From: a virus
IMG/VR virus record: IMGVR_UViG_3300047678_000278
Coordinates: 1 to 50,145 of that record
Reading direction: 5' to 3' (one strand)
Length of the DNA stretch: 50,145 nucleotides
Shown: piece after piece, positions 1 through 50,145 of the stretch
Numbering within the stretch: position 1 is the first letter of the stretch
How the letters are laid out: the number at the start of each line of letters is the position of its first letter
Notes under the pieces: generated by a model
What the model was told of the DNA's origin: nothing
The model's input: only the letters and a program-made list of their open reading frames with translations
Databases searched by the model: none
Program-made: the position numbers and the translations under genes

Positions 1-127
1 AGTAGAGGAGTTCGTGTTTTTGTTTGGGGGAGTTGGGGTTGAACTCCGGGTCAGCAATGAGATAGCGGAGTCGTTCAATTTTCTCATCCGCGAGTTTGGT
101 GAGATCGATCTCGAATTTCTTCATGGT
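1..127. repeat. Terminal overlap, copy 1 (identical to 50019..50145)
   Basis: Base-by-base comparison: agtagaggagttcgtg...gaatttcttcatggt occurs at both window ends (127 nt). It lies inside a coding sequence. Confidence 0.95.
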
Positions 128-793
128 TTCGAGATTAACTCGCATACCGCAGGCAGACATTGCGAGTCCGACGACTGAACGGAAGTGACCATGTGTGAAG
201 TTGTGACGGGCTGGAGGATTCTCATTCAGCAGGTCAACCAACTTGAGTGTGTTGATCATGGTTTCTTTAGTGTCGTTCATGCCGTATTCACAATACTCCT
301 CAAAGTCTTCTGACTTACGACCAGCCTTCCAATACTGATAATCGTCGTTCAAGACTGAGGAAATAAAGTCAAGTGTCTTGGGTAGCTCCGGCCATAACGA
401 CCAGAACATAATCATTGTATCATACGCCCAGTTGTGGACAGGGAGTCCGTATCGCAGCAACCACATCAAATCATAGACGTAGTTCTGTCCGGTGAAGCGA
501 ATGCCGGATGCGTTGAGTCGGCGGTTGGCTTCATAGATTCGAAGGATGTTGCTGGGTGGTCCGGAAGTGATTGATTTGGAAGTTTGATATGGGAAACAGA
601 ATGAATACATCTCATCGCCGATGAGTCCCGTGTAGCAATTAACGGTCATGTAGAATGGCAGAGTCTTCCGTTTCTTTTGGAAAGGGAATGTCTCAATGTC
701 ATTCGATATTAAGTCGGATTGCATCAGGATTTCTTCGGCATTATCAATGTCGGAGTCAGTGAATACAATCGATCGGTGAACTTCTTTAATCAT
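1..793 (-). CDS. DNA polymerase family A, N-terminal part (exonuclease-like region); the ORF runs off the window edge and continues at 50018..48700
   Basis: Reverse-strand ATG at 793..791 follows GAGGGA. My translation is MIKEVHRSIVFTDSDIDNAEE...GQNYVYDLMWLLRYGLP (Exo II-like N..YD). It is in frame with MKKFEIDL at position 124, the first residue of track ORF 48700..50142. It is absent from the track because no stop lies inside the window. Confidence 0.85.
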   Translation of the reverse strand, partial: MIKEVHRSIVFTDSDIDNAEEILMQSDLISNDIETFPFQKKRKTLPFYMTVNCYTGLIGDEMYSFCFPYQTSKSITSGPPSNILRIYEANRRLNASGIRFTGQNYVYDLMWLLRYGLPVHNWAYDTMIMFWSLWPELPKTLDFISSVLNDDYQYWKAGRKSEDFEEYCEYGMNDTKETMINTLKLVDLLNENPPARHNFTHGHFRSVVGLAMSACGMRVNLETMKKFEIDLTKLADEKIERLRYLIADPEFNPNSPKQKHELLY

Positions 794-816
794 AATCCCT
801 CGTGATGGAGTAAGCA

Positions 817-847
817 GGGCCGGGAGTCCTCGTGAATCCCCCGGCCC
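817..847 (-). other. GC hairpin between the upstream gene and the polymerase gene
   Basis: gggccggg (817-824) pairs with cccggccc (840-847). No T-tract follows on the minus strand, so it may be an attenuator or RNA-stability element. Confidence 0.3.
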
Positions 848-869
848 CTAGCTGGCATCGAATGGTCCG

Positions 870-1298
870 CTATCCAATGCTGGCGTCTTCGATAACCCGG
901 AGTGCTGCCTTGACTGCGGCAATGCGACTCCGGATCAAATCGAGTTGTTTGCCGCCGCGCATGATGCCCGCGTCGGCAATTTGTCTGAGAGAGTCATACC
1001 GGTCGATCAGCCGATCCTGCTCCGTCGCCTCGTCTTCCAACCGCGTTGCGACCGACTGTAAGAATCCTTTGGTAAACCTATCAGACGGCCGCGTCATGTT
1101 GCTGTCGAGTGAGGCGAGTTCGTTCAGCGTTACGACAGCTGAGTCGAGCTCGTCCATCGCTCCCGAAGAGTGAACATCGAGATCGACACTGAGTTCTTCT
1201 GACTCCCTGGTCTTCTCGATTTCAGTCTTCAAAACTGCCTCGAAATCCGCCGCTATCAACGAAGCATCCGAGTCGTGATCATTGGCAGCCTTCGCCAT
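870..1298 (-). CDS. Hypothetical protein (142 aa)
   Basis: Track ORF 870..1400 trimmed to the internal Met (MAKAANDHDSD...). That ATG (1298..1296) overlaps the TGA of the upstream ORF as TGATG. Confidence 0.5.
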   Translation of the reverse strand: MAKAANDHDSDASLIAADFEAVLKTEIEKTRESEELSVDLDVHSSGAMDELDSAVVTLNELASLDSNMTRPSDRFTKGFLQSVATRLEDEATEQDRLIDRYDSLRQIADAGIMRGGKQLDLIRSRIAAVKAALRVIEDASIG

Positions 1299-8630: not shown

Positions 8631-8632
8631 TC

Positions 8633-10582
8633 CTAGATATACAATCTAACTCTGGTCTTCAGAGCTCCAAGCGATTCTGCCTGCAACGCCTGATACCGTT
8701 TCACTTTTTCTGCGAGATTCACGCCGAAGATCTTCTGCTTTGCGATCGCAGTCCGCATTCCAAAGTCGGTATAGAGAAGAATCACCCGCTTCTGTGCCCG
8801 CGTAATAGCGGTGTAGAGCCACTCACGACTCAACTGACCTTTTACAATATGATGAACCACGACGATCGCGGTGTCCATCTGCGAGCCTTGGCACTTGTGG
8901 CAGGTGGAAGCATACGCGAGTTGCAGCGCCCCGACTTGCGTCTTGTTGGAGAAGATACGACTTGCGCCATTCGCGAACAGCACTTCAACCCGGTGAGACG
9001 CCGGACCGCCACCTTCACGAACTTCGTCGCTTGAATCTTCACCGTCACCATTGAGGTTTTCGGAAGAGAGATTCAAGTTACCGAAATCCATCGCGGCGAA
9101 CTCAGCGAGCAATCCGGAGTTGTCGTCTTTGCCGTAAAGGATTCGTTCAGCTCTCGCCTTCTTTGCCTCCAGCACTAGATGCTCCGGGCCAACCATTGTG
9201 GCGTCACCAGACCAGGCAGGATTCCTTTCGATCTTTGTGATAACTCCGACCATGCCATTCGTAACTCGATTCTCCACATCAGGAGCTTCGTTCTTGGTGG
9301 CCATGACTCGGTGATTCACTGCGAACCGCTTAAACCCTCCGCGATCGATCTCAATCACATAGCGAGGGTGGTCAGGAGTCGGAGGCTCGATCATATTCGC
9401 GAGCGCCTCGTTGATCCACAGTTGTTGAATCGCCGAGGCTGTGTTGTTCTCGTCAAAGCCGTTGCCAGCAGTAATGATTCGATCACGATACGGATCATAG
9501 ATGAGTGGTTCAGTGGGATCGATGGAAGGGTGGACAGTGCGGGTGCGAAGTTGATTCGCTATCGCAATAATGTTCGCTCCAGCTTTCATCGGGTCGGCCG
9601 GAAGCTCGAACCCGATGACGCGCCAGTTGGGATTCGTCTTCGGATCATCAAACCACTCAGGACCGAACTTCTTCCCTTGCAGAACGGCATGGGCGGTCTC
9701 GATGATTCGATTCGCTGCCGGTTCCTTCTGCCGGTGAATTTTCGTCAACTCCGCAACCGGCCAAGCAGCGAGTGCGTGGGCAAACATCGAGTGAGAAGTG
9801 ACTGGGGGCAGCTGATTCAAGTCCCCAATGAGAATGATTGTCGTGCCACTGCGAGCCGCGTCGAGGATTTGGTGCCAGAGATCGACTCCAACCATTGACG
9901 CTTCGTCCACGATAATGATATCGTAGTCAAATTTATTCGCGGCGTGGCGAGACGGCATGAATATCTTTGTCTCTTTGAAGCTCCCATCCGGCTTGGCTAC
10001 TTCCGTAATAACTGGAGCGTATTCGAGGAGGGAGTGAATCGTTTTGCAAGCAGGATGCAGCCACTCGGGCATGTTCTGCTTGATGACTTGAGTCGCGATG
10101 CCGGTAAACGCACAGAGGGCGATTGAGAGTCCCTGTTTGCCGGTGAGCATGTTGATCTTGCGAGGAGAGATTCCAAGTTCTTCATCCCCATAAACGATTT
10201 TCTCCAAGAGATACTTGGTGACAGTCGTTTTGCCAGAACCAGCCGCGCCAATCAGGCAGCCGTATTGCTCGCTGACTAGCATGTTGATGGCGGCTTCCTG
10301 ACTCGGATCGAGCGTGATCGAAGGGTCGGAGAGACCGCAGACTTCGCGAGGAGGAATCAGCGTGGACTTCACCACTTCCTGCTTAATCGCTTTCGCTTCT
10401 TCCTTCAGCGGATCTTCGAGAGATTCAACCTCCTCGATGATCTCGGTTCCGCTGGCAAGGATTCTCTCGACGATTATATTCGCCTTCGCTTCGAGAGTGT
10501 CGGAGGGAGATTGCCGATCGAGTCGCGCCAACTGGTGCGCCTTGGCGTAGTTAACCATGAACGCAGCGGGATCAAGTGCCAT
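8633..10582 (-). CDS. SF1 DNA helicase, RecD/Dda-like
   Basis: Track ORF. Walker A GAAGSGKTT, Walker B IIIVDEASMV, ILIGDLNQLPPV, TCHKCQGSQMDTAIVV and LYTAITRAQKRVILL are present. Confidence 0.9.
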   Translation of the reverse strand: MALDPAAFMVNYAKAHQLARLDRQSPSDTLEAKANIIVERILASGTEIIEEVESLEDPLKEEAKAIKQEVVKSTLIPPREVCGLSDPSITLDPSQEAAINMLVSEQYGCLIGAAGSGKTTVTKYLLEKIVYGDEELGISPRKINMLTGKQGLSIALCAFTGIATQVIKQNMPEWLHPACKTIHSLLEYAPVITEVAKPDGSFKETKIFMPSRHAANKFDYDIIIVDEASMVGVDLWHQILDAARSGTTIILIGDLNQLPPVTSHSMFAHALAAWPVAELTKIHRQKEPAANRIIETAHAVLQGKKFGPEWFDDPKTNPNWRVIGFELPADPMKAGANIIAIANQLRTRTVHPSIDPTEPLIYDPYRDRIITAGNGFDENNTASAIQQLWINEALANMIEPPTPDHPRYVIEIDRGGFKRFAVNHRVMATKNEAPDVENRVTNGMVGVITKIERNPAWSGDATMVGPEHLVLEAKKARAERILYGKDDNSGLLAEFAAMDFGNLNLSSENLNGDGEDSSDEVREGGGPASHRVEVLFANGASRIFSNKTQVGALQLAYASTCHKCQGSQMDTAIVVVHHIVKGQLSREWLYTAITRAQKRVILLYTDFGMRTAIAKQKIFGVNLAEKVKRYQALQAESLGALKTRVRLYI

Positions 10583-10585: not shown

Positions 10586-10804
10586 TTAATCTTCCTCTGT
10601 CACGTCAAAGACAATGCAGAAGTCATGCATCAATTTTGACTCTTCTCCCAGCTTATCGAGCGCGGAAACGAAAGACGAAAGCAGCATTTGTTTTCTATCA
10701 ATGTGATTCACTGCCGCGAATTTCATTATCGGCGCAGAAAGATAGCGGGTCACTTCTTCGTGGTTAGGATCAGTAACCGAATTAATGCGCACTATGATGG
10801 TCAT
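10586..10804 (-). CDS. Hypothetical protein (72 aa)
   Basis: Track ORF, tightly packed between neighbouring genes. Confidence 0.45.
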   Translation of the reverse strand: MTIIVRINSVTDPNHEEVTRYLSAPIMKFAAVNHIDRKQMLLSSFVSALDKLGEESKLMHDFCIVFDVTEED

Positions 10805-10807
10805 GAC

Positions 10808-12034
10808 TTAACCCTCCTTTTTTCCAAAGTCCGAGAACCTGGCCATCATGGCATCGAATGCAGCGGAGAGCTCAGGGCTGAGTTTAGACGGCGCTTTGGG
10901 CGTTGATTTCTTTGGGGCCTTTTTACGGCCATAGAGTATATCCAATTCTTTCGCCGCTTTTTCGCCGACGTGTTTGATTGTCTGTCCGCCGTCAAGACGG
11001 GCAGCGCGAGCATTGACTCTCTTCATCTCATCCAGCCTACGGTCGGTAAATGAGATTTTCTCAATATCAGTCGTGAGTTGATCGACTGCGACAGTGAGTC
11101 TTTGCCTTTCCAGCTTGCTAACCGAGCCCATTAGATCAGATTGAGTCAGTATCTGCTGGATATTCTGAAGCAATTGACCGGCGGTCGAAGCGGATGACAG
11201 TCGGTTCTGGAGCGTCATTGAGTAAACGCGCTCGATTAAGGTCGGCGGAGTTTTCGTGTCACCGTCCGCGATTTTCGGAATACGACGCCGCAAGACTTTC
11301 ATCGCGGCGGAAATAATCATTGCATTCCCGGAGGGAGTAGGAGAGGAAGCAGTCAATCGCCCCATGTTATCCGCTTCGAGGGAAGAGAATATTGCATGGA
11401 GTGCTAGGAAGTCAAAAGGATTTGACTTATTCTCTAGCCACGCCAGAAATTTCGGTCCGTGGCGCGTGCTATCGACTGCATTGTGGAAGGAGAAGATTGA
11501 GTCAATCCGCAGCATACACTCGAAGACAGCGGTTTCCTCGCACTCAATATCCCACCATTTTTCCGGGAGAGTGGAAAGGTGAGTTTGGAAACGAATTAGG
11601 AAATCCAGTCGTTGGCGAAGTGTGCTGAATGAGTTCTTATGCCGAGCGGGAGTTAGAGTGTCGTAGAAGAAACGACCCATGACATAGCCGAATAGCTTAT
11701 TCGTGCCGTTGAGTTCATCGGCCCGCAAAGCATTGACTAGGGTATGATAGTTGGTATGAAATCGAATTGACGGCGCTGGCCCGCTGGAAAGGATCGCGTG
11801 GCGGATAGCGAATGCATCAACCAATTCCTTCTGAGCCGCTGTCGGCATATCCTGCAAGAGAGATCGCAGACATGTATTCAATTCCTCATCTGACATAACT
11901 CCGTATGCGAAGCCAGTGAGTGAGCAGTAGATATGGTGCATCTTGGCGGCTTTGATCTCGACTATTGATTCAGCCAATACAGGCGGATCGAATACGAAGT
12001 CATTAAAGCCGGAGAGATCGAATGTTTGAGTCAT
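10808..12034 (-). CDS. Hypothetical protein (408 aa), coiled-coil and Lys-rich C-terminus
   Basis: Track ORF 10808..12118 trimmed to MTQTFDLSGF, which is preceded by GGAGCTACTCAC. It ends ...ELSAAFDAMMARFSDFGKKEG. Confidence 0.55.
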   Translation of the reverse strand: MTQTFDLSGFNDFVFDPPVLAESIVEIKAAKMHHIYCSLTGFAYGVMSDEELNTCLRSLLQDMPTAAQKELVDAFAIRHAILSSGPAPSIRFHTNYHTLVNALRADELNGTNKLFGYVMGRFFYDTLTPARHKNSFSTLRQRLDFLIRFQTHLSTLPEKWWDIECEETAVFECMLRIDSIFSFHNAVDSTRHGPKFLAWLENKSNPFDFLALHAIFSSLEADNMGRLTASSPTPSGNAMIISAAMKVLRRRIPKIADGDTKTPPTLIERVYSMTLQNRLSSASTAGQLLQNIQQILTQSDLMGSVSKLERQRLTVAVDQLTTDIEKISFTDRRLDEMKRVNARAARLDGGQTIKHVGEKAAKELDILYGRKKAPKKSTPKAPSKLSPELSAAFDAMMARFSDFGKKEG

Positions 12035-12066
12035 GTGAGTAGCTCCTAGATAGTTGAGTAAGTGGA

Positions 12067-12291
12067 TTAGGTGCGGTTGATTACGATCTCGACGTTCTGG
12101 CTGACTGCCCAACGGCATATGCGAATAAGTCGTTCGCGCCCTGAGTATTTATCGAGATCGATTTCAAATCGAAACGGCTTGTCATTGTGCTTGTATTCAA
12201 GAAAGCACCAGCCGTGTTGAGTCGGTGTTGCCACCGCTGTCTTTGTGATGAAAGAGGGAAGTTGAGCCATGATTGCACCAATTTGATTCAA
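12067..12291 (-). CDS. Hypothetical protein (74 aa)
   Basis: Track ORF with a 4-nt overlap with the upstream gene. Confidence 0.45.
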   Translation of the reverse strand: MNQIGAIMAQLPSFITKTAVATPTQHGWCFLEYKHNDKPFRFEIDLDKYSGRERLIRICRWAVSQNVEIVINRT

Positions 12292-12554
12292 GATTTCGGA
12301 ACGCTATCGATGATAGCCTGAATTTCCTTTTCGTGTCGAATGTGAGCCTCACAGAGTTCGACCATAACGCCACCGTGCAACTCAACTAGATATTGCCCGA
12401 CGTCATATTCAACCAGCGGCGAAAAAAACTCTTTTCCCTTTTCGTTGAATACAACTCCGACCGCCAATCCGCCAGCATTGCGGACGACTTCTTCTGATTT
12501 ATCAAGATCGTATTGCTCAATTTCAGCCAATGTGGCCTGTGACTTATTGCGCAT
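12288..12554 (-). CDS. Hypothetical protein (88 aa)
   Basis: Track ORF. First gene downstream of the candidate promoter at 12616-12645. Confidence 0.5.
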   Translation of the reverse strand: MRNKSQATLAEIEQYDLDKSEEVVRNAGGLAVGVVFNEKGKEFFSPLVEYDVGQYLVELHGGVMVELCEAHIRHEKEIQAIIDSVPKS

Positions 12555-12615
12555 AGCATTGACCCCGTGATTTGGGCAAGAGGGTTGAATACAAGACGTA
12601 GGTGCCCGTGAGAAA

Positions 12616-12645
12616 AGTATAACATGGCGCTAGGGAGCATGGCAA
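12616..12645 (-). promoter_or_regulatory. Sigma70-like promoter with extended -10 (leftward)
   Basis: Minus strand reads TTGCCA, then an 18-nt spacer ending TGt, then TATACT. It lies in a 160-bp gap about 60 nt upstream of ATG 12554. Confidence 0.5.
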
Positions 12646-12713
12646 ACGGAAATTTTCCAATGATATCAATGGGTTAGCGGCCTGTTGGACTCGATAGGAA
12701 AACATTCCTAGCC

Positions 12714-13652
12714 TTATTCCGAGTCTGAACCGAAGGAACCGAGATCGAATCGATTAGCCACCTCGTCGAAGCGATCGAGTTGAGATAGCAGCATCGCTTT
12801 CTTGGTCCCGGGTTTGATTCCTCTCTTATCCAGCGCCTTCTCTTCCATGCGTAACTTCGCTTTACTAATCTCTTCGAGAAGGAGCTTTGAATCTTCGTCC
12901 ATCCTGCTCGGCGACCAGTCGTGGATGGAAGAACTGAATTGTTTCGCCCATTCCTTTACACTCAGTATGGAGTGAAACCGGAATAGAACACGGCGTAAGT
13001 GCCATTGAGGGCGAAAGAAGCGGGGCCAGGGGATTCCGTATTTCGCAAGCATTTCGACTGGGAGGCGAGGAGTACAGGTGAGTCCGGTGATGTGCTGATC
13101 GATTCCGAACTGCCAGCCGTCGTCGATATCTGCCCACATAGGAGGGAGAAGAGAGCGGTCGTGGTTGGAGACTTTATGAGTCAACCATTCAGAGATCGGG
13201 ATTTGGCCGTGTTCGAGCTCTTCGATGAGATTGCCGGTGGATGAGTCAGCGATATACACTGATCCCCAAGATATGTCTCCGAGGACGGATTTTTTGTGAG
13301 CGCCAGAGGAGCGGGAGAGAGAAATCGTTGTGTCTTCTCCGTGGCGAATCTTCGGAAGGAATGGGAGAACGAAGCCGCCATCGAGGAGATCGAAGGGGAT
13401 GAAGGATGGAGGGGAGGAGCGAGTGAGTCGACGATAATACCCACTCGCAGGGCCAATGGAGAACGCGCTCGACCATGCTAGGATTGTGCTGACTCGAGGG
13501 ACGGGGATATGCGAGTCAGCAAGGAATATCTCCCCTCGATCTTGGGAAGCATCGCCTAGGAGATTATGAGCGAGGCCGGCGGAATGAATCTCTGCACTCA
13601 GCGCGCAAACGGACGCGGTGAATTGCTCAGCTGTGATGGATTGAAGGAGCAT
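12714..13652 (-). CDS. Hypothetical early protein (312 aa)
   Basis: Track ORF, no recognisable motif. Third gene of the leftward early transcript. Confidence 0.55.
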   Translation of the reverse strand: MLLQSITAEQFTASVCALSAEIHSAGLAHNLLGDASQDRGEIFLADSHIPVPRVSTILAWSSAFSIGPASGYYRRLTRSSPPSFIPFDLLDGGFVLPFLPKIRHGEDTTISLSRSSGAHKKSVLGDISWGSVYIADSSTGNLIEELEHGQIPISEWLTHKVSNHDRSLLPPMWADIDDGWQFGIDQHITGLTCTPRLPVEMLAKYGIPWPRFFRPQWHLRRVLFRFHSILSVKEWAKQFSSSIHDWSPSRMDEDSKLLLEEISKAKLRMEEKALDKRGIKPGTKKAMLLSQLDRFDEVANRFDLGSFGSDSE

Positions 13653-15392: not shown

Positions 15393-15421
15393 ATAGTAGA
15401 TGAATCGCGAAAGCATGTCAA
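15393..15421 (-). promoter_or_regulatory. Sigma70-like early promoter, leftward (P_L)
   Basis: Minus strand reads TTGACA (15421-15416), a 17-nt spacer, then TACTAT (15398-15393). Confidence 0.55.
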
Positions 15422-15459
15422 GCGAAATGTGGTGAGTCGGTATAGAATTACGTTGCGGC

Positions 15460-15499
15460 TTCTATTCTACACTGAATGAGAGGAACAGCATGAATAGAA
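15460..15499. promoter_or_regulatory. Inverted pair of the 8-bp box TTCTATTC / GAATAGAA upstream of P_L
   Basis: ttctattc (15460-15467) and gaatagaa (15492-15499) are exact reverse complements. The same box recurs at 16652-16661 and 16669-16678. Confidence 0.4.
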
Positions 15500-15568
15500 A
15501 AACCTGGAGTCTGGTTGCAGGAGGCCAAAGGATTAGCATGTAATATGTGATAGTGAGTCATAGTCCCA

Positions 15569-15585
15569 GCGCCGAAGGCCCTCAC
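15569..15585 (-). repeat. GT(G/A)AGGG + GCC-TTC-GGC motif, copy 1 (inverted orientation)
   Basis: The reverse complement reads gtgagggccttcggcgc. Its upstream flank gagacgtcgcttgtgaggg matches copy 3 (gatacgtcgctcgtaaggg). Confidence 0.7.
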
Positions 15586-15594
15586 AAGCGACGT

Positions 15595-15636
15595 CTCAAC
15601 ACCTCAACACCTCAACACCTCAACACCTCACAACAC
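15595..15636. repeat. Microsatellite (CTCAACAC), 4 perfect copies plus 1 variant
   Basis: Read directly from the sequence; the tract has no G. Confidence 0.95.
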
Positions 15637-15669
15637 TCATGCCCTATCGATTCGTTGCGCTCCCTAGGA

Positions 15670-15723
15670 CATGAGTGTGATGAATGTGATGAATGTGATG
15701 AATGTGATGAATGTGATGAATGC
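15670..15723. repeat. Microsatellite (GATGAATGT), 4 perfect copies plus 2 variants
   Basis: Read directly from the sequence; C occurs only at the first and last positions. Confidence 0.95.
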
Positions 15724-15737
15724 ATAGATTATAAGAA

Positions 15738-15765
15738 CGGTTAATGTAAGGGCGACTGGCGTCGC
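15738..15765 (+). repeat. GTAAGGG + hairpin motif, copy 2 (variant stem GCGAC-TGGC-GTCGC)
   Basis: cggttaatgtaagggcgactggcgtcgc. The upstream half resembles copies 6 and 7 (cggtaaacgtaaggg). Confidence 0.65.
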
Positions 15766-15768
15766 GCT

Positions 15769-15790
15769 ATCTGAATCATATCTGAATCAC
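15769..15790. repeat. 11-bp direct repeat TATCTGAATCA, 2 copies
   Basis: Read directly. Each copy contains TGAATCA, whose reverse complement TGATTCA occurs twice at 15863-15880. Confidence 0.9.
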
Positions 15791-15837
15791 AATTATATAA
15801 TGAGGGGGACTTATGTAATGAGGGAGATACGTCGCTC

Positions 15838-15855
15838 GTAAGGGCAACTTCGTTG
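15838..15855 (+). repeat. GTAAGGG + hairpin motif, copy 3 (stem CAAC-TTC-GTTG)
   Basis: gtaagggcaacttcgttg. The stem sequence differs from other copies but the pairing and the TTC loop are kept. Confidence 0.65.
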
Positions 15856-15859
15856 TGGT

Positions 15860-15880
15860 CATTGATTCAACATTGATTCA
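15860..15880. repeat. Direct repeat CATTGATTCA, 2 copies
   Basis: Read directly. Reverse complement of the TGAATCA pair about 90 bp upstream. Confidence 0.9.
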
Positions 15881-15887
15881 CATCTGC

Positions 15888-15912
15888 GGCGCCGAAGGCG
15901 GAGCGGCCGAAG
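15888..15912 (-). repeat. Core hairpin motif, copy 4 (inverted; CGCC-GAA-GGCG on the plus strand)
   Basis: ggcgccgaaggcggagcggccgaag. The reverse complement contains gccttcggcgcc and a second cttcggc. No GTAAGGG is attached. Confidence 0.5.
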
Positions 15913-15987
15913 AAAACCATCACACTCACTACTAGATTCGTGCTATGTGCGTATTGACTCTATTAATACACCTATCATTGATCTGTC

Positions 15988-16029
15988 ATTCGTTATTCGT
16001 TATTCGTTATTCGTTATTCGTTATTCGTT
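15988..16029. repeat. Microsatellite (ATTCGTT), 6 perfect copies
   Basis: Read directly from the sequence. Confidence 0.95.
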
Positions 16030-16063
16030 ACTCATTATTCACCATTCATTATCCATTATTTAT

Positions 16064-16095
16064 CCATCATCCATCATCCATCATCCATCATCCAT
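16064..16095. repeat. Microsatellite (CCATCAT), 4.5 copies
   Basis: Read directly; G-free. It runs straight into motif copy 5. Confidence 0.95.
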
Positions 16096-16110
16096 AAGGG
16101 CCTTCGGCGT
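16095..16110 (+). repeat. (A)TAAGGG + GCC-TTC-GGC motif, copy 5
   Basis: taagggccttcggcgt. Confidence 0.65.
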
Positions 16111-16176
16111 GCTTGATAGGTTTGCTTGATATGACTCATGTAACCATTGAGCAACAATTCGTATTATACTGTGTGC

Positions 16177-16204
16177 GATGGAGAATGGAGGATGGAGAAT
16201 GGAG
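16177..16204. repeat. Microsatellite ((G/A)ATGGAG), 4 copies
   Basis: gatggag aatggag gatggag aatggag; C-free. It presents four GGA motifs. Confidence 0.95.
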
Positions 16205-16205
16205 A

Positions 16206-16230
16206 CGGTAAACGTAAGGGCCTTCGGCGC
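16206..16230 (+). repeat. 25-mer CGGTAAACGTAAGGGCCTTCGGCGC, copy 6
   Basis: Identical to 16458-16482. Confidence 0.95.
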
Positions 16231-16233
16231 ATT

Positions 16234-16275
16234 GGTGTTGGTGTTGGTGTTGGTGTTGGTGTTGGTGTTGGTGTT
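16234..16275. repeat. Microsatellite (GGTGTT), 7 perfect copies
   Basis: Read directly; contains only G and T. Reverse complement AACACC is embedded in each unit of the CTCAACAC array. Confidence 0.95.
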
Positions 16276-16458
16276 GTTGTTCGTTGACTCGATATCATTC
16301 ATTGACTCGATGCTATCCATTAGCTTGACATTGCCTATTAGCTCAATGGCTCACTGGCTCACTGGCTCAATACTATTCAATGGCTCGATATTATTCATTG
16401 ACTTGACACTATTCACTGGCTCAATGTTATTCATTAGCTCAATATTGTTCATTGGCTC
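16276..16458. repeat. Degenerate 18-bp tandem array (about 9 units, consensus near TATTATTCATTGGCTCAA) with an inserted TGGCTCA(C/A) triplet; iteron-like
   Basis: My hand segmentation gives units ending in ...gactcga, ...gactcga, ...agcttga, ...agctcaa, three tggctca(c/a), then ...ggctcga, ...gacttga, ...ggctcaa, ...agctcaa, ...ggctcgg. Confidence 0.8.
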
Positions 16459-16482
16459 GGTAAACGTAAGGGCCTTCGGCGC
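16458..16482 (+). repeat. 25-mer CGGTAAACGTAAGGGCCTTCGGCGC, copy 7
   Basis: Identical to 16206-16230. Confidence 0.95.
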
Positions 16483-16615
16483 TTCCATTCCCACTCCCCC
16501 TTCACCCCTCCCAATAGTGAATCAATGATGCTGAATCAAGGGCTAAAGTGTGGGTGAGAATGGGATAAAACCGAGAGATATAACACTGATCCATGAGATG
16601 CTTACCTTTAAGAGG

Positions 16616-16680
16616 GGTATTATTTTTTCTATTATATTTATTCTTTCATAGAAGAATAGAAGAACATAAAGAATAGAAAT
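16616..16680. other. AT-rich block with an inverted repeat and GAATAGAA direct repeats (candidate DNA-unwinding element)
   Basis: tattctt (16639-16645) pairs with aagaata (16652-16658). aagaatagaa occurs at 16652-16661 and 16669-16678. This is the most AT-rich stretch I saw in the window. Confidence 0.35.
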
Positions 16681-16953
16681 CCTAAGACCCCCCTAGGAGA
16701 ACCTTTTCACACTCGCACTCATTATATCTCTCTTTTCCTGCCCCACAATTTGACTCATTCCCACCTCACCACGGTGATTCCCAGGGCACACCTACGGAAG
16801 GTGCTACCTACGCCACAACGGTTGACTCTCCGCCCCCCTCCGCCCCTCCTTCCCTCCTCAACCGCTAAAATTTGACTCAACCTCCCCTCACCCGCCCCCA
16901 ACCCATTGATTTTTCAGCAAAAAAAATATCTCGACTCGACCCCCTATCTCACC

Positions 16954-16982
16954 TTTACATCCGTCCCCCAAAAGCGTACACT
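16954..16982 (+). promoter_or_regulatory. Sigma70-like early promoter, rightward (P_R)
   Basis: TTTACA (16954-16959), a 17-nt spacer, then TACACT (16977-16982). It lies about 70 nt upstream of ATG 17054. Confidence 0.45.
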
Positions 16983-17013
16983 TTCCCCAGTCCGCTGCAT
17001 TCAGCACCGGACG

Positions 17014-17040
17014 AAACCAAACCAAACCAAACCAAACCAA
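17014..17040 (+). repeat. (AAACC), 5 copies, in the predicted 5' leader just before the SD of gene 17054
   Basis: gaaaccaaaccaaaccaaaccaaaccaaGGAActcaacaccATG. Confidence 0.9.
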
Positions 17041-17053
17041 GGAACTCAACACC

Positions 17054-17908
17054 ATGTCTACTCTCAACGTAATCACTGACGAAAAATCCATCGAGCGAGT
17101 TAAGAAGGCTGCAACCGGCGGAACCATGCGGAAAGTCTATTCCACTATGGAAGCGGCAATCGCCGCCATGCAGTCCCTCGCTCCTATCGCCGCCGAACTC
17201 AAAATCGCCATCAAGACGGCCGATCCAGAGACCTTTGCAGCCGAAGGAATGCAGCCGGTAATCGCCATCGTCGGCGCTCGCAAAGAAGAAACCGGCGCAG
17301 ACGGCAAGAAGCGCGGAGTCGTCGGCATTAAGGGGGTTGCATTCTTCCCAATCCCCACCCTCGACACATTCCTTTCCGACGAGCAGGGGCGTGACTGGCT
17401 CGTTAAGATCGCCGAGAAAGAAGCCGCACACGTTATCTTCCGTCCACTCCGCTCCGCTGAAAGCCTCGAAGAACTCGATACAGCAGCACTCCCGTCGAGT
17501 GTCGCCGCAATCGTCATGTCGAGCCGCGCCGACGCACTCGATACTGACTGGCTCGATGCAGTCTGGCCGATGGCTCGTGAGGGACTCAAGCTCAAAGCCC
17601 CAAAGCTTTACGAAGCTCTGCCGAAGCAGAAAGCGGAACTCGTGAAGTGCCTGCGCTCGAAGTCCTACGCCGAGGGCGCATACTCAGTCCTAGAGGGAGC
17701 CAACGCATTCACCGGCGCGCTGGCAGCATTCCTTATGAAGGCCGGAGAACTCAACAAGGCGGAAGACGGCACGTCCGACCCGATCGATACCAGCGAACTC
17801 ACTCGCTGGCTTGACGCTCGTGACGAGACCAATCTCGCCATTCCGAAGCCCGCTGACTACTCGGCAATCGCTGGGCAGGACTTTAGCAAGATCGATATCG
17901 GCTTCTAG
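17054..17908 (+). CDS. Hypothetical protein (284 aa), first rightward gene
   Basis: Track ORF with AAGGAA SD. Ala/Glu-rich, ends ...DFSKIDIGF. No motif recognised. Confidence 0.65.
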   Translation: MSTLNVITDEKSIERVKKAATGGTMRKVYSTMEAAIAAMQSLAPIAAELKIAIKTADPETFAAEGMQPVIAIVGARKEETGADGKKRGVVGIKGVAFFPIPTLDTFLSDEQGRDWLVKIAEKEAAHVIFRPLRSAESLEELDTAALPSSVAAIVMSSRADALDTDWLDAVWPMAREGLKLKAPKLYEALPKQKAELVKCLRSKSYAEGAYSVLEGANAFTGALAAFLMKAGELNKAEDGTSDPIDTSELTRWLDARDETNLAIPKPADYSAIAGQDFSKIDIGF

Positions 17909-17929
17909 CCGATCTGCACTCACAACGGT

Positions 17930-17961
17930 TTGGTGCGTCTCAGCCCATCGCGGCGCACCAA
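17930..17961 (+). other. Intercistronic hairpin
   Basis: ttggtgcg (17930-17937) pairs with cgcaccaa (17954-17961), with a 16-nt loop and no T-tract. Confidence 0.35.
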
Positions 17962-18008
17962 CTCTCCCACTCAATCACAACCCGAATTACCTCACAGGAG
18001 TCACTCAA

Positions 18009-18329
18009 ATGGCCAAAATCAACCGCGCTCACTCGCAGACCGGCATTCGCACGGCTGGAATCCCCGGCTTCACTCTCACTATGGAAATCGTCTCGACAAT
18101 CATTCGCGAAGTCGAGCATGATCCGCACGGCGAGAAATTTCAGACTATCGGGCAGCACATTGACGCAATGATCGCGGAAGCCCTCTCACGCAAAGACCGT
18201 CCGAGTAACATCGCAATCGATCTCACCGACATGGCCGAGCTTCTAATCCCCGACCATCGCGGCTTTCAGTCCCTCAACCCACACGGCGACCACTTCGCTA
18301 ACGCCGAGCCGTTCAAAGTCACTCGCTAA
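18009..18329 (+). CDS. Hypothetical protein (106 aa)
   Basis: Track ORF 17811..18329 trimmed to MAKINRAHSQ, which is preceded by CAGGAG at 9 nt. Confidence 0.55.
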   Translation: MAKINRAHSQTGIRTAGIPGFTLTMEIVSTIIREVEHDPHGEKFQTIGQHIDAMIAEALSRKDRPSNIAIDLTDMAELLIPDHRGFQSLNPHGDHFANAEPFKVTR

Positions 18330-18335
18330 TCTACC

Positions 18336-18373
18336 GAGCCGCGCGAGTTACCAAGCCCGCGCGGCTCTTTATT
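18336..18373 (+). terminator. Rho-independent terminator
   Basis: gagccgcgcg (18336-18345) pairs with cgcgcggctc (18358-18367), with a 12-nt loop, followed by TTTATT. Confidence 0.75.
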
Positions 18374-18839
18374 CTGATATATATCTAATTTGATTCAAAA
18401 ATTTTTCCCTACGCTTCGCTTCGGGAAGGAAGAATTGAGCGGAGTCTGCGACGCATTCTCCTCTCGGGCTCGATCCTCGCTAACGCTCGGCGCCCTTCGG
18501 GTTGACTCGTTACACTCGGCCTCCGGCAGGGAGGAAGCTCGCTTCGCTCGACATATTGTGAAGGATTCGCTTCGCTCATGGACAGCGCTGTATCTCCACC
18601 ATGCCTATTATTACCTACACTCCCACTCTACACTACCCACACTCAACCACCACGCACCAACACGAGCGCATTCGATTCATACACTACCACTCACCTTGAC
18701 AGGGGCGGCAGGGGTAACTGGGACTCCTGAATCTTGTGGAGGGGGGCATATCCCCCCAGTGTACTCACGACCCGGCCCCGTTAATATGGGCCCCATGGCT
18801 CCGTAAGACTGCTTAGATCTCGCACCACGGTGAATCAAA

Positions 18840-24596: not shown

Positions 24597-24703
24597 CATC
24601 ATTCCGCTTGAGTTTACCTGCCGGATGGGGTAGTCTACTCAGCATTCGGCAGGTAATTCTCCTAGCCGAGATTTCAAAACGGCACCGAACAGGAGATTCT
24701 CAG

Positions 24704-25906
24704 ATGGCTGTCCGTGGAATATTCGCCTCTCACTCGGGAATCGTCGGCGATCGCCAGACCGATCTCGCTGCCCGAGTCCTTCTCACCATGCCCGGCGGAA
24801 TGGCTCCGCTCTTGGCACTCTCGTCCGGAATGCAGTCGGCGCCGGCGCACGATACCGCGTTCAGCTGGATCGAGGATTCGTGGATTTCCGGCAACACCGC
24901 TTCGGCGGAGACAGTGAATGCGGCCGCGACGGACTTCGACGTTGTCGACGCGAACATCTGGACGCCGAATACGATCATCATGAACGAGGACTCCGGCGAA
25001 TACATGCTCATCACCGCGATCAGCGGCGTGAACGTGACCGTGATTCGCGGCATCGGCGGCACCACGGCGGCGGAAGTCACCAGCGGCGATACGCTTCAGT
25101 CGATCGGCACGGGATTCGCGGAAGGTTCCGGCAAACCCACTCCGGTGGCGCAGCGTGGCGAGACTCGCACGAACTACGTGCAGATCTTCAAGAATGGCTG
25201 GGCAATCACCGGGACGGCGACGGCGATCGACTTCACGACCGGCAGCCAGATGGCGATGAATCGCGAGCAGTGCCTCGCCTATCACGCTGAGGACATCGAG
25301 CGTGCGTTCCTCTGGGGCAAGAAGGATGTCCGAGTCATCGGCAACCAGCAGTTCCGGCTCTCAGACGGCATCCTGACCCAGATCGAACAGTTCGGCGGCC
25401 TCGTCGAATCGGCGGCATATCTCGGCCAGGCGGGTGAGATGTCGCTGTTCGGGATGCAGAACTTCATGCGGCGAATCTTCGACCGTCGTGTCAAGGGAAT
25501 GCCGAACGAGCGCATCGCGTTCTGCGGCTCGCTGTTCCTGGAGCGAATCCAGCAGATGGCGATGATGGACGCCACCTACAATATCGAGGCGAACGAATCC
25601 GAGTTCGGTATCCAGATCACGAAGCTAAAATTCTTCAACGGCCAGCTGAATCTCATCACCCATCCGATGATGGTCGAGAACGCGATCTGGAACCAGGAAC
25701 TCTATGTGCTGCACCCCGGCCTCATCAAGCGGCGCGTGTTGCGCGACTCCTGGTCGGAGGAGTTCTCTTCGAAAAAGCAGAACAACAACGGCACGGACTC
25801 GACCGAGGGCTACATCGCCATCGAGCAGGGCTTCGAGGTCAAGGGCGTCGAGACGATGGGCATTCTGCGGGATGTGACGACTCCGGTTCCGTCGATCCAG
25901 CCGTAA
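24704..25906 (+). CDS. Major capsid protein (HK97-fold type, by position and N-terminal pattern)
   Basis: Track ORF trimmed to MAVRGIFASHSG, which follows AGGAGA. It contains an F.WIED.W pattern. It has the highest GC I measured (about 62% on one line), follows the scaffold gene, and is followed by a strong hairpin. Confidence 0.65.
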   Translation: MAVRGIFASHSGIVGDRQTDLAARVLLTMPGGMAPLLALSSGMQSAPAHDTAFSWIEDSWISGNTASAETVNAAATDFDVVDANIWTPNTIIMNEDSGEYMLITAISGVNVTVIRGIGGTTAAEVTSGDTLQSIGTGFAEGSGKPTPVAQRGETRTNYVQIFKNGWAITGTATAIDFTTGSQMAMNREQCLAYHAEDIERAFLWGKKDVRVIGNQQFRLSDGILTQIEQFGGLVESAAYLGQAGEMSLFGMQNFMRRIFDRRVKGMPNERIAFCGSLFLERIQQMAMMDATYNIEANESEFGIQITKLKFFNGQLNLITHPMMVENAIWNQELYVLHPGLIKRRVLRDSWSEEFSSKKQNNNGTDSTEGYIAIEQGFEVKGVETMGILRDVTTPVPSIQP

Positions 25907-31329: not shown

Positions 31330-31692
31330 ATGGAATATTGGCTGGAAGAATTCACCTACCGCGGTCGTCCCCCGAGTGGGGAGGGCAGTGAGTCTCCCCC
31401 GGAATACCATGTCAGGATCGGATTTCAGCAGCCCGATCCCTTCAATCCTGATGGGTCGATGAAGCGGTCAATTTCGGATGCGCTGACTCCGGCGAGAGCG
31501 GAAGCTGCTGGTTGGCCGCTTTCGATGGTGGTGAAGGCGATCAATGCTGAGACTCTGAAAGCGCTCGATGCAGCGACTACCGAGGTTGCGGCTCTCCGGG
31601 AAGCTCTTGAGGAAAAGAGCAGTCAGGTCACCGACTTGACTGCAATGGTGCAGCAGATTCAGGAGTCGAGCAATGGCAATCCTAAGGCCTAG
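31330..31692 (+). CDS. Hypothetical protein (120 aa), C-terminal coiled coil
   Basis: Track ORF 31279..31692 trimmed to MEYWLEEF. Confidence 0.45.
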   Translation: MEYWLEEFTYRGRPPSGEGSESPPEYHVRIGFQQPDPFNPDGSMKRSISDALTPARAEAAGWPLSMVVKAINAETLKALDAATTEVAALREALEEKSSQVTDLTAMVQQIQESSNGNPKA

Positions 31693-32002
31693 CCGAGGAT
31701 CGACCAAAGATTCCCTGATCTACACAGGGCTCGACGGCGAGATCACGTATGATACGGACCTGAAGCGGTTGCGTATTCATGACGGAGTCACTCCCGGCGG
31801 CACGTTGATTGCCGCAGGTAATGATGTGGCTCCGAATGCGCTGGTTGGAATCGGAGTCAGGACAGTGCATGTTTTGACTCAAGATGAATACGACGCAATC
31901 GTCTACCCCGACAATCAGACTCTTTATATCATTGCACCTGCGAGGATCGTCATGCTCCCTATCGGGTATGCACTCGGTGCGCCGATCATGAACGCTTTGT
32001 AA
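31673..32002 (+). CDS. Small fibre-like protein with a G-E-x-x-Y-D-T-D ... H-D-G-V-T-P-G-G motif
   Basis: Track ORF with AGGAG SD. GEITYDTDLKRLRIHDGVTPGG resembles N-terminal motifs of phage fibre or tropism proteins. Confidence 0.5.
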   Translation: MAILRPSRGSTKDSLIYTGLDGEITYDTDLKRLRIHDGVTPGGTLIAAGNDVAPNALVGIGVRTVHVLTQDEYDAIVYPDNQTLYIIAPARIVMLPIGYALGAPIMNAL

Positions 32003-47663: not shown

Positions 47664-47681
47664 AGTCCAGTGGTGGATTCT

Positions 47682-48359
47682 TTACGGAATCACGGGAGCG
47701 GGGACAACACCACTGACGTTGAAGAGAACGCCGGCAGCTGGAGTCGTCGTCGCGATGAAGCCGAAGTAGGTGGTGGTCGCCGTCGCCACGAAGCGGAGCT
47801 TGACGGAATCATACAAACCGTTCGACGTGGGACCGCTGACTTCGTCGACAGCCTGACTCGCGAGAGGCGCCGTAAGAGCAGCCGAGTTAGAGACCGCGAG
47901 CAGGAGTGCGTCGTTGATCTCGAAGGTGCGGAAATCGATCTCGTATTCGATGCCGATGACGGTCGTCATGGAGGCGGAGACATAGAGTGCGCCGCCACCG
48001 CCGGCAGTGAGAGTCGAGATCAGCTTTCCACCGGCTGCCGAGAGGGCATTGGTCGCGGCTTCTGCACCGCCATCCGCCCAGCCCGTGGTTGCGACAAAGG
48101 GATTCCCGCCGTTCGCGAAGTAGACGGTTTGGACGACAGAATCCCGGAGATCGAGCAGTGCTTTGTAGAGGAAATCTCGGCAGGCCGGAGCCATCTGATC
48201 GAGGAAGAATCGTTTGGCGTATTCGGGCGACGCTTCCTCGATCGTGATCATGTTGATGAGTTGCTGGACCTTGCCCTGATTGCCGTATGCGTTGACGTAG
48301 GCGATCGGGGATTTCAGTCCGATGACCGCCGAGGCCATGTGAGAGTTTCGGGACGTCAT
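47682..48359 (-). CDS. Hypothetical Ala/Gly/Thr-rich protein (225 aa); its N-terminal domain is paralogous to the upstream gene
   Basis: Track ORF with AGAAGGAA SD. KVQQLINMITIEEASPEYAKRFFLDQMAPACRD aligns with the 48393..48635 product. Confidence 0.6.
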   Translation of the reverse strand: MTSRNSHMASAVIGLKSPIAYVNAYGNQGKVQQLINMITIEEASPEYAKRFFLDQMAPACRDFLYKALLDLRDSVVQTVYFANGGNPFVATTGWADGGAEAATNALSAAGGKLISTLTAGGGGALYVSASMTTVIGIEYEIDFRTFEINDALLLAVSNSAALTAPLASQAVDEVSGPTSNGLYDSVKLRFVATATTTYFGFIATTTPAAGVLFNVSGVVPAPVIP

Positions 48360-48392
48360 TGATTCGGTTCCTTCTTGGAGATCGCGACGCGG

Positions 48393-48635
48393 TTAAGCGT
48401 TGACGATCGCCGTCTTGAGTGCGATGAGGGTGGCGATCATGGAGTCGCGGCAAGCCGGCGACATTTCGTCGAGATAGCCGCGCGGCACGTTGGGATCGGT
48501 GCCTTCGCGGGAGATCAAATCGATCAGCTGCTGAACTGCACCTTTGTTGTCGTCGCCAGCAGTGCCGGAGTCGAAGGTGACCGGAGACTGAATGCCCTTG
48601 ATGGCATTCGTGATATACGGGTTGGTGTCGGACAC
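48393..48635 (-). CDS. Hypothetical protein (80 aa), paralogue of the N-terminus of 47682..48359
   Basis: Track ORF 48393..48710 overlaps the polymerase stop by 11 nt. An in-frame GTG at 48635 follows AAGGGGAACCAA. The product contains AVQQLIDLISREGTDPNVPRGYLDEMSPACRD. Confidence 0.5.
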   Translation of the reverse strand: MSDTNPYITNAIKGIQSPVTFDSGTAGDDNKGAVQQLIDLISREGTDPNVPRGYLDEMSPACRDSMIATLIALKTAIVNA

Positions 48636-48699
48636 TTGGTTCCCCTTTCGTGGGTAGTGAGTGTGTGCATCAGTAGAGTAGCATTGTGAAAAAATTTCT

Positions 48700-50145
48700 T
48701 CAAGCCACAACGGTCTGCTTATTTGATGGGTAGCGAGGAGTTTCAGCCAGCCATTGCTCGACTCCTTCTAGCCCTCCAATCGTTCTACCCTCTTTCCCAG
48801 CCCACTTGTAGCTGACTTCCGCCTCAATGCCGACCACAAATGTTTGGTCTCGGCATACGACGGGCCGACTCATCACATGAAAGATATCCTTGATGCCATC
48901 TTTCCACCGAGGGTGAGTGTAGCGAATATTAAAAGTGAGAGAATCATGAGTCTGAAGACGTAGGCTGGCCCCGTGAGTTTGAGGGCTGATTCTCCGTGGA
49001 GGGTCAGCAGCATCAGGAGCAGGACCATCCCGAAAAGAGCAAGTTCGGATACCAAGGATCAGTTCCTCCATTACGGTGTTGATTCGTCCGGCTGTATTCG
49101 CCTGCCCCATAGTGGCTGCACCAGCGCGTAGTACTTCATCGTCAAGCGGATCACCAATGAACCGTTGGAAATAATTGAAGATAGTTCGTAGTCCACCTGT
49201 AGCGACAAGCTCTTTCCGAATGTCGGTATACCAGGAATCAGCACCTGTTCGTTTAAGCCGAACATAGTGGGCTCGGAATTTATGTTCGAGTTCGGCGCAG
49301 AATTTAACGAGCCTTTCCTGCTGCCAGAGTCCAGCGTCCTTATTCCCCAACTCCTGTGCGGCAGCAACGATTGCTTCTCGACCGGCGGTCATGAGTAGAG
49401 TCAAACCCGCCATCAAATAGTTATTCCCGTGGACTAGCTTCTTAGTGATTTGACGAATGCCAGTAATCGGATGAACGATCTTCGGATCGTGAGTTTTTTT
49501 GCCGGCGACGATTCTCTCATAGGTCCAGTTTGTGAAGAAGATGAGGGCATTGGAGGCATGAATGTCACGACCTGAACGGATGAGATCAATCTTTCTTGGA
49601 TCGCCTGACTCAAAGGACACGAACACTTCGTCGGCTCCAGAGAAGTCAATGTCCAGCAGGAAGGAATCTGAGTCAGCCTCAAGGAATACTCGGTATTCTT
49701 TTCGGATATTCTGAGCGTTACCCCCGTGTCCGAACGCAGAGCCCCGTGATGAAAGCCGAGTCGTCGTTGTGCCAACACCGTCATATGCCGTAAGGAATCG
49801 GAACTCACCTGGACGGTGACGGATCGGGAACTGTGGCATGCCCACGACATTGGACAGCTGCTTGGCGGGCTCGATTGCTTCGAGGATTCCATTGCTAACT
49901 CTCCTGAAAACTGGGTGTTCGTCCCGCATTGCGCGCAGAACCATTGCGCCAGTAGAGGCTTCCTCGGTTTTCTTAACGAATCGGCCACGTGCATTTCTCG
50001 GGCGAGCGCCGAGGATGGAGTAGAGGAGTTCGTGTTTTTGTTTGGGGGAGTTGGGGTTGAACTCCGGGTCAGCAATGAGATAGCGGAGTCGTTCAATTTT
50101 CTCATCCGCGAGTTTGGTGAGATCGATCTCGAATTTCTTCATGGT
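48700..50145 (-). CDS. DNA polymerase family A, C-terminal polymerase domain (joined length 2112 nt, 703 aa)
   Basis: Track ORF 48700..50142. Motif A-like DIDFSGADEV, motif B-like RQITKKLVHGNNYLMAG and motif C-like LQTHDSL are present. The 5' end continues through the 127-nt overlap into 1..793. Confidence 0.9.
   Translation of the reverse strand, partial: TMKKFEIDLTKLADEKIERLRYLIADPEFNPNSPKQKHELLYSILGARPRNARGRFVKKTEEASTGAMVLRAMRDEHPVFRRVSNGILEAIEPAKQLSNVVGMPQFPIRHRPGEFRFLTAYDGVGTTTTRLSSRGSAFGHGGNAQNIRKEYRVFLEADSDSFLLDIDFSGADEVFVSFESGDPRKIDLIRSGRDIHASNALIFFTNWTYERIVAGKKTHDPKIVHPITGIRQITKKLVHGNNYLMAGLTLLMTAGREAIVAAAQELGNKDAGLWQQERLVKFCAELEHKFRAHYVRLKRTGADSWYTDIRKELVATGGLRTIFNYFQRFIGDPLDDEVLRAGAATMGQANTAGRINTVMEELILGIRTCSFRDGPAPDAADPPRRISPQTHGASLRLQTHDSLTFNIRYTHPRWKDGIKDIFHVMSRPVVCRDQTFVVGIEAEVSYKWAGKEGRTIGGLEGVEQWLAETPRYPSNKQTVVA
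50019..50145. repeat. Terminal overlap, copy 2 (identical to 1..127)
   Basis: Same 127-nt string as 1..127. The unique genome length is therefore 50018 bp. Confidence 0.95.

Follow-up and report, generated by a model that had tools for sequence, protein, structure and literature searches.

The pentamer GANTC occurs 683 times in the phage genome assembly IMGVR_UViG_3300047678_000278 (positions 1..50145, a complete genome of 50,145 bp and hereafter the window), and the sites of this array, which lie 73 bp apart on average with a median gap of 64 bp, are quasi-regular and short-range ordered at intervals of about 60 bp. The excess is a trait of a clade of uncultured phages, and we consider it probable, at roughly 0.7, that the array represents selected docking sites for a GANTC-specific reader of duplex DNA that needs to cover the chromosome. 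An initial annotation of the window had drawn attention to the abundance of the motif, whereas its conservation across the clade, the stepped and quasi-regular spacing, the compensatory turnover of sites and the existence of a GANTC-depleted sister lineage are new.

An exact count corresponds to 13.6 sites per kb, with a density of 10-21 per kb throughout except in two islands considered below. The initial annotation had arrived at a three- to fivefold genome-wide excess from manual counts in six sampled stretches, and these counts were accurate or nearly so (the true figures being 6, 11, 11 where 9 had been given, 27 where about 29 had been given, 14 and 21), while the ratio of observed to expected sites (O/E) is 3.55 when 192 sites are expected from base composition. 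Against the dinucleotide product the ratio is 1.91, under a first-order Markov null it is 1.90 (359 expected) and under a second-order null 1.64 (415 expected). A maximal-order null (638 expected, O/E 1.07) was discarded as uninformative, since it conditions on GANT and ANTC tetramers that are themselves inflated by the motif. Codon-aware nulls were run on 41 confident coding sequences containing 551 of the sites, and here a synonymous-codon shuffle gives 260 +/- 12 expected sites (O/E 2.12, z 25), a codon permutation 201 (O/E 2.74, z 26), and a shuffle preserving both amino acids and dinucleotides, for which phase-0 sites are out of reach, 380 +/- 10 (O/E 1.45, z 17). The annotation had named a ratio of 1-1.5 under a codon-aware null as the range in which its claim should be given up; the two standard codon nulls lie above this range, but the most conservative one grazes it.

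The annotation's further notion that codon bias alone is unlikely to explain the excess, sites being found in all codon phases, on both strands and outside genes, is likewise borne out, in that coding sites are distributed over the three phases as 121/184/246 in genes on both strands, and non-coding DNA with 14.1 sites per kb is as dense as coding DNA. Indeed the largely non-coding region at the boundary between leftward early and rightward late genes (15394..17053) contains 21 sites, and the excess is therefore independent of coding sequence. Among all pairs of dinucleotides separated by spacers of 0-6 bases, GA-N-TC is the top outlier (z 17.3), and the excess needs a spacer of exactly one base, the O/E of GATC being 0.96 and that of GANNTC 0.90. 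Within genes, codon choice depends on whether a site can be formed: isoleucine is encoded by ATT in 79% of cases when flanked by G and C as against 22% otherwise, threonine by ACT in 65% of GANTC-forming contexts as against 17%, and asparagine by AAT in 83% as against 37%, and of the positions able to hold a synonymous GANTC 35% are occupied where 12% would be expected. Given the specificity for a one-base spacer, the codon nulls, the non-coding density and this context-dependent codon choice, base composition and codon bias are ruled out as a sufficient cause. It is true that GA and TC are each about 1.36-fold over-represented and account for approximately half of the raw excess, and a motif read as GANUC at the RNA level would, being palindromic, be present in transcripts of either strand. 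That the array is a by-product of GA/TC excess, codon usage or amino-acid content, or else an RNA motif, is nonetheless scarcely credible, since a 1.9-fold excess over the dinucleotide product remains for the one-base spacer only, a 2.1-2.7-fold excess remains over the codon nulls, non-coding DNA is as rich as coding DNA, composition cannot account for the order in spacing, and outgroups of similar composition show no excess.

The window also avoids certain palindromes, GTAC being present 28 times where 192 are expected (O/E 0.15) and CTAG 39 times (O/E 0.20), and its rarest dinucleotide is TA (rho 0.53); in relatives the O/E of GTAC ranges from 0.00 to 0.66. Avoidance of the classic restriction type thus coexists with the GANTC excess in one genome, and the excess, as the annotation had argued, is the opposite of restriction-site avoidance and points to a positive function.

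All four variants of the motif are equally enriched, with A, C, G and T at the central position in 26, 23, 26 and 25% of sites, and strand asymmetry is absent (GAGTC 176 vs GACTC 156, GAATC 177 vs GATTC 174). Apart from a weak preference for Y-GANTC-R and a slight avoidance of T at +1, the flanks carry at most 0.1 bit. Its symmetry and free centre suggest that the motif is read in duplex DNA by a dimeric protein, and they are in poor agreement with two functions put forward in the annotation, namely GAGTC-specific nicking of the PleI/MlyI/Nt.BstNBI type, which would moreover fragment the genome by nicks every 60-70 bp, and priming at GTC as by T7 primase. The sites may instead be a target of epigenetic or base modification or a decoy, as the annotation had also proposed. 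More generally, a role as a signal in DNA processing, whether as a Chi-like attenuator of a RecBCD/AddAB-type or phage helicase-nuclease, as a primase site or as a nicking site, appears distinctly improbable. The phage does possess a RecD/Dda-like helicase, a PD-(D/E)XK nuclease and a primase-helicase, and Chi provides a precedent for discriminating self from non-self by motif density. However, Chi and primase sites are asymmetric and oriented while GANTC is palindromic with a free centre and without strand bias, the GANTC-poor relatives carry the same enzymes, nicks in a palindrome every 60 bp amount to double-strand cuts, and the stepped spacing described next is not predicted.

The gaps between sites are more even than random: control motifs and outgroups have a coefficient of variation of about 1.0, whereas the window has 0.76 and most relatives have 0.44-0.67. 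Long gaps are rare, those above 150 bp making up 1.5% of the total in 308 kb of relatives where 8.1% are expected, and those above 200 bp 0.3% where 3.5% are expected, showing that site-free stretches longer than about 150 bp are selected against. Compared with a null in which potential synonymous sites are realised at random, the window has an excess of gaps of 40-79 bp (242 vs 135-153 +/- 9) and a deficit of gaps of 9-39 bp (93 vs 164-189), and in the pair correlation distances between 5 and about 38 bp likewise form an exclusion zone (O/E 0.2-0.5). The frequency within this zone approximates the neutral background, which suggests that a close second site is simply not selected, the pairing at 21-24 bp excepted. 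Furthermore, nearest-neighbour distances are stepped, with modes at about 12-14, 24, 41, 54, 68, 79 and 94 bp and troughs between them, and the 24-bp mode is very sharp (148 pairs as against 14 at 20 bp). A dominant period of 13.3-13.7 bp is found in two independent subsets, the structural-region loci and the early-region loci, whose detrended profiles correlate with r=0.73 where control motifs reach at most 0.27, and the spectral power at this period is 41 as compared to a maximum of 21 among 300 jittered nulls. The window shares the stepped pattern, except that its first modes come about 2 bp earlier. Two finer features seen in the window only, a peak at 48 bp and a trough at 57-59 bp, were rejected, as relatives fail to reproduce them. 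Neither helical phasing at 10.5 bp nor a long-range lattice was seen, just a 3-bp codon signal and suppressed long-wavelength fluctuations, and an inspection of the 24-bp pairs for a longer hidden motif or hairpin revealed neither conserved bases nor complementarity of the central bases.

GANTC sites arise mainly through synonymous codon choice that depends on context, and purifying selection maintains them. In relatives with a nucleotide identity of about 70%, 45-54% of the window sites are kept at the orthologous position, where other gapped tetramers average 32%, which places GANTC at the 97th percentile of gapped tetramers in the two closest relatives (L094 and L095), and at the 50th in a third contig, L014. 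A lost site tends moreover to be replaced by a new one nearby, in that a private site of the relative lies within 30 bp of it in 64% of cases as against 40% at random. The two islands of low density are found at 10705..12688 (9 sites, O/E 1.17), comprising most of a 436-aa gene and small open reading frames (ORFs), and at 16933..18392 (5 sites, O/E 0.96), comprising a conserved 284-aa gene upstream of the putative small terminase. Since the homologous regions of relatives are GANTC-rich, the islands are probably recent recombinational imports from GANTC-poor phages that have yet to acquire sites; searches of the island genes against PDB sequences, PADLOC, Pfam and PHROG gave nothing. A comparable island, a 970-bp gap devoid of GANTC, is present in the otherwise saturated genome of contig L098.

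These observations also bear on the idea of a neutral molecular drive, in which biased repair or gene conversion, along the lines of very-short-patch (VSP) repair or the model proposed for the cyanobacterial palindrome HIP1, creates GANTC without benefit to the phage. Imported islands without sites are what any gradual directional process predicts, and the inner one-mismatch variants of the motif are indeed mildly depleted (0.70-0.85). No single one-mismatch neighbour is strongly depleted, though, as a donor sequence should be, and a VSP-like conversion pathway is therefore not indicated. Such a drive is very unlikely above all because context-blind mutation cannot make the probability of a site depend on its neighbours, and would accordingly produce neither an exclusion zone, a deficit of long gaps, stepping nor compensatory turnover, and the conservation of site positions above background likewise speaks against it.

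Relatives were retrieved by way of the capsid protein, the terminase, the helicase and an orphan protein. In about 25 related metagenomic contigs, with protein identities of 35-85%, the GANTC O/E is 3.1-5.4 relative to base composition and 2.3-3.7 relative to dinucleotides, so that the excess persists when the statistic is repeated in related phages, as the annotation had suggested doing. Outgroups of the same genome architecture are near 1 (Polaromonas phage Tiera 1.14, EBPR podovirus 3 1.15), and about 70 further, more distant helicase relatives range from 0.1 to 2.3. Nested within the GANTC-rich clade is however IMGVR_UViG_3300025018_000242 (loci L006 and L021), the capsid protein of which is 52-53% and the helicase 42% identical to those of the window, and which has a GC content of 44-46% and a GANTC O/E of only 0.29-0.40. 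This depleted sister looks like a host switch upon which selection was reversed. Caulobacter phage Kuura is similarly depleted (O/E 0.31), and together the two indicate that GANTC is under strong selection in both directions in this phage family, which shows that GANTC-reading systems exert selection in its hosts. With regard to other palindromes, GTAC is absent altogether from L006, the capsid-region locus of the sister, and GATC is absent or nearly so from seven distant helicase relatives (L090, L023, L026, L053, L056, L067 and L079), the first of which also has a GANTC O/E of 0.11, and all of which exemplify extreme site avoidance in the wider family.

As to the nature of the reader, the motif has the attributes of a CcrM/HinfI site, being a palindrome whose central base varies freely and which needs no particular flanks, and to our knowledge no class of GANTC reader other than the CcrM/HinfI-type enzymes has been described. 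When essentially all ORFs were scanned with Pfam, PHROG and PADLOC, no methyltransferase gene was found, and thus no cognate enzyme encoded by the element itself, in agreement with the annotation, which had recognised none; a consistent DPPY-type ORF is likewise absent from related loci. A host methyltransferase is proposed because the phage encodes none that is recognisable, and a host-encoded reader is favoured furthermore because the depleted sister shares nearly the same core genes and because, in the region covered, no phage gene tracked the trait perfectly when presence and absence were scored by tblastn and jackhmmer over 16 rich and 11 poor loci. Dense N6-methyladenine (m6A) methylation of the array by a CcrM/HinfI-type host enzyme is the reading that we rank first, as it invokes the only known class of reader and needs no phage gene, although we would give it somewhat less than even odds. 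The reader would then be an N6-adenine methyltransferase supplied by the host and acting with two-fold symmetry on duplex GANTC, replicating phage DNA would gain m6A on both strands at intervals of approximately 60 bp and so be coated epigenetically or marked as self, and the exclusion zone and steps of about 13.5 bp could result from steric or cooperative packing of neighbouring bound proteins.

Several points weigh against methylation. A plain methylation coat predicts neither the 13.5-bp step nor the sharp spacing of the 24-bp pairs, and m6A at GANTC guards only against GANTC-specific enzymes, barring some sensor of methylation density. CcrM-bearing genomes (Caulobacter and related) reportedly under-represent GANTC within genes, and in Caulobacter the enzyme appears during just a short part of the cell cycle. 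It should also be mentioned that a family of 312-aa orphan proteins co-occurs with the trait and could constitute an alternative, phage-encoded reader.

This orphan (12714..13652, minus strand) is a candidate on the basis of correlation only. Its family has about 35 representatives among 1.8 billion proteins, and all contigs with a homologue, even at 27-33% identity, are GANTC-rich, the tally being 6 of 6 newly fetched plus 6 of 8 earlier loci; the protein is absent from the GANTC-rich loci L018 and L022, and its distribution may follow phylogeny alone. The AlphaFold2 model is confident (pLDDT 89, pTM 0.85), but Foldseek found no match to it in PDB or BFVD and the sequence profile matched nothing among PDB sequences, so the predicted fold is possibly new. 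The JGI annotation covers just the C-terminal 181 aa of the protein. A weaker candidate, since the GANTC-depleted sister has it too, is the 436-aa orphan directly upstream of the helicase (10808..12118, minus strand), in which about 300 conserved N-terminal residues are followed by a Lys-rich low-complexity linker and, at the extreme C-terminus, by a conserved ARFGDF motif. This architecture resembles a tethered protein-interaction peptide, and our guess would be a helicase loader or replication-initiation factor.

A close rival, conceivable if doubtful, is that the reader is instead a non-catalytic GANTC-binding protein that nucleates at the sites and forms a cooperative array, which organises, shields or marks the DNA in the manner of an architectural or protective coat. 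Such a protein could come from the phage, the 312-aa orphan being an example, or be a nucleoid protein of the host, and with about 13-14 bp per subunit would be functionally like p6 of phage phi29. A coat accounts better than methylation for the steps of 13.5 bp and the 24-bp doublet, its footprint would fit the exclusion zone, the period of 13.3-13.7 bp, the 24-bp pairs and the mean spacing of about 60 bp resemble the numbers known for p6, and the confinement of the 312-aa family to GANTC-rich contigs is in line with it. Against it, Pfam detected no DNA-binding domain and neither Pfam nor PHROG a p6-like gene, the 312-aa protein is lacking in two GANTC-rich loci, has a fold that matches nothing and may co-occur with the trait through shared ancestry, and helical phasing at 10.5 bp is unseen. 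In a broader form of this idea, which we put forward tentatively, the GANTC lattice of the clade genomes (steps of about 13.5 bp, the 24-bp doublet and about 60 bp per site) would be a structural code positioning a new sequence-specific coat, made of protein or of protein and m6A, that serves as viral chromatin or as a mark of self-identity, with a reader that is perhaps a clade-restricted orphan without known fold.

The array might also titrate or recruit a host factor such as CcrM, the complex of GcrA and RNA polymerase, or a HinfI-like enzyme, and in this way take over transcription or interfere with the cell cycle of the host. Methylated GANTC is bound by GcrA, a cofactor of sigma-70, Pfam searches reveal neither an RNA polymerase nor a sigma factor in the phage, and even spacing beyond the footprint would maximise the number of sites occupied simultaneously. 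We nevertheless find a function as sponge or recruitment platform improbable, since there is nothing to connect these phages with Alphaproteobacteria, a phage that titrated a nuclease would be committing suicide, and methylation would be required as well. Transglycosylases, hydroxymethylases and glycosyltransferases are likewise not recognisable in the phage.

Turning to the genome as such, the exact direct repeat of 127 bp at its termini (1-127 = 50019-50145) is an assembler overlap, and the genome is a closed circle of 50,018 bp or a circular permutation. Across the junction runs a 721-aa open frame on the minus strand that encodes a family-A DNA polymerase (793->128 joined to 50145->48700). 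The order of genes is like that of Tiera and EBPR podovirus 3, with a leftward replication and recombination block (DNA polymerase, DUF3987-type primase-helicase, deoxynucleoside monophosphate kinase, Sak4-like ATPase, PD-(D/E)XK nuclease and Dda/RecD-like helicase) and a rightward block consisting of the large terminase, a 665-aa gene in the slot of the Tiera portal gene, an SU10-type capsid protein and further virion genes, the last encoding a virion protein of 1,762 aa; protein identity to the two phages is just 22-30%. The Dda/RecD-like superfamily 1 helicase (8633..10582, minus strand) was the marker that retrieved 80 related early regions and by which the trait was mapped across the family, and the major capsid protein (24608..25906, plus strand; Pfam SU10_MCP) retrieved the related structural regions. 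In the tail module, placed approximately at 31279-32002 and 27169-29732 by synteny with L094 rather than by Pfam matches to individual genes, are a collagen-repeat protein, an Mtd_N/Phage_tail_C protein resembling a major tropism determinant, and Laminin_G_3, along with the lysis or virion enzymes Peptidase_M15_4, PG_binding_1, SLT and phage tail lysozyme. Pfam detects no reverse transcriptase and there is thus no evident diversity-generating retroelement.

Clues to the host are scarce. A nucleotide search found no close cultured relative, and protein matches to cultured phages, at no more than 28% identity, are to Pseudomonas 119X/PaP2-like phages, Polaromonas phage Tiera, EBPR podovirus 3 and Caulobacter phage Kuura. 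Capsid homologues number more than 600 in metagenomes, many of them on contigs of 47-52 kb, and the relatives of an 835-aa virion protein, which was examined for host clues, are exclusively metagenomic. No tRNA genes were found in the phage genome, and the names of metagenomic clusters gave no host information. The sole GTDB match is a phage contig mis-binned into an Acholeplasmataceae metagenome-assembled genome; this is the 49-kb clade member L014 (CAZYSQ010000008.1), labelled 'uncultured Acholeplasmataceae' in the database, and a capsid protein of the clade (P0102, KAK0039459.1) is similarly mislabelled as belonging to the snail Biomphalaria pfeifferi.

Phage genomics leads one to expect that short palindromes are avoided, and this clade does the reverse, paying a genome-wide cost in synonymous codons to keep a palindrome dense, even and locally replaced, which implies that GANTC is read along the whole chromosome by a selective agent acting strongly and continuously. 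The identity of the reader could reveal a new strategy of anti-defence or self-marking, viral chromatin, or a use of CcrM-type methylation of the host. The pattern is moreover a simple sequence signature by which such phages and their hosts may be found in metagenomes, the contrast between the imported low-GANTC islands and the rest of the genome provides a natural test bed, and the phage array may be viewed as a counterpart, easier to work on, of the still unsolved HIP1 problem of cyanobacteria.

Among known systems, CcrM and M.HinfI of Alphaproteobacteria and Haemophilus share with the array the recognition sequence, the free central base and the two-fold symmetry. Phages of CcrM hosts are however normally depleted in GANTC, as exemplified by Kuura, and the motif is depleted in about half of pelagiphages (PMC9516812), whereas in the present phage it is enriched and ordered while no enzyme is encoded. 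Indeed we found no published report of GANTC enrichment or ordered spacing in phages, the literature describing depletion. The avoidance of restriction sites such as GTAC and CTAG is alike in that selection acts on the count of a short palindrome by way of synonymous positions, but the selection on GANTC, enriched 3.55-fold, is opposite in sign. Chi, uptake signal sequences (USS) and DNA uptake sequences (DUS) are also short motifs enriched genome-wide and read by a DNA-processing machine, and USS are more evenly spaced than random; these are however asymmetric 8-12-mers, often oriented, that are spaced on the kb scale in cellular genomes and whose machines are known. The p6 protein of phi29 coats all viral DNA as a dimer per 24 bp and a monomer per 12 bp, with 63 bp per superhelical turn (PMC10899789). 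A coat on the present genome would likewise be a phage-wide regular array with similar distances. However, p6 reads bendability rather than a motif, the phi29 genome has no known iterated motif, the step in the present array is about 13.5 bp and not 12, and a p6 homologue could not be detected.

Of the phenomena described so far HIP1 comes nearest. Like GANTC in this clade, it is a short palindrome that is over-represented genome-wide, conserved in position beyond background and hence maintained by selection, non-randomly spaced and unexplained in function. Elhai is said to have linked HIP1 to methyltransferases in 2015, the palindrome containing a methyltransferase target. HIP1 is an 8-mer of cellular genomes, enriched 15-300-fold, with a periodicity of 10-90 kb and with cognate orphan methyltransferases in the genome, while the phage array is made up of a viral 5-mer that is enriched 2-5-fold, has short-range order at 24-150 bp and is not accompanied by a methyltransferase gene. 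The highly iterated palindrome of cyanobacteria (GCGATCGC) has been described in detail (Xu, Lawrence & Durand 2018, PMC5861425), and it is above all the short-range order on the scale of nucleosomes that sets the phage array apart from it. We can thus conclude that the array is a new case of a selected iterated genomic motif, with a substantial chance that the system behind it belongs to a category of its own.

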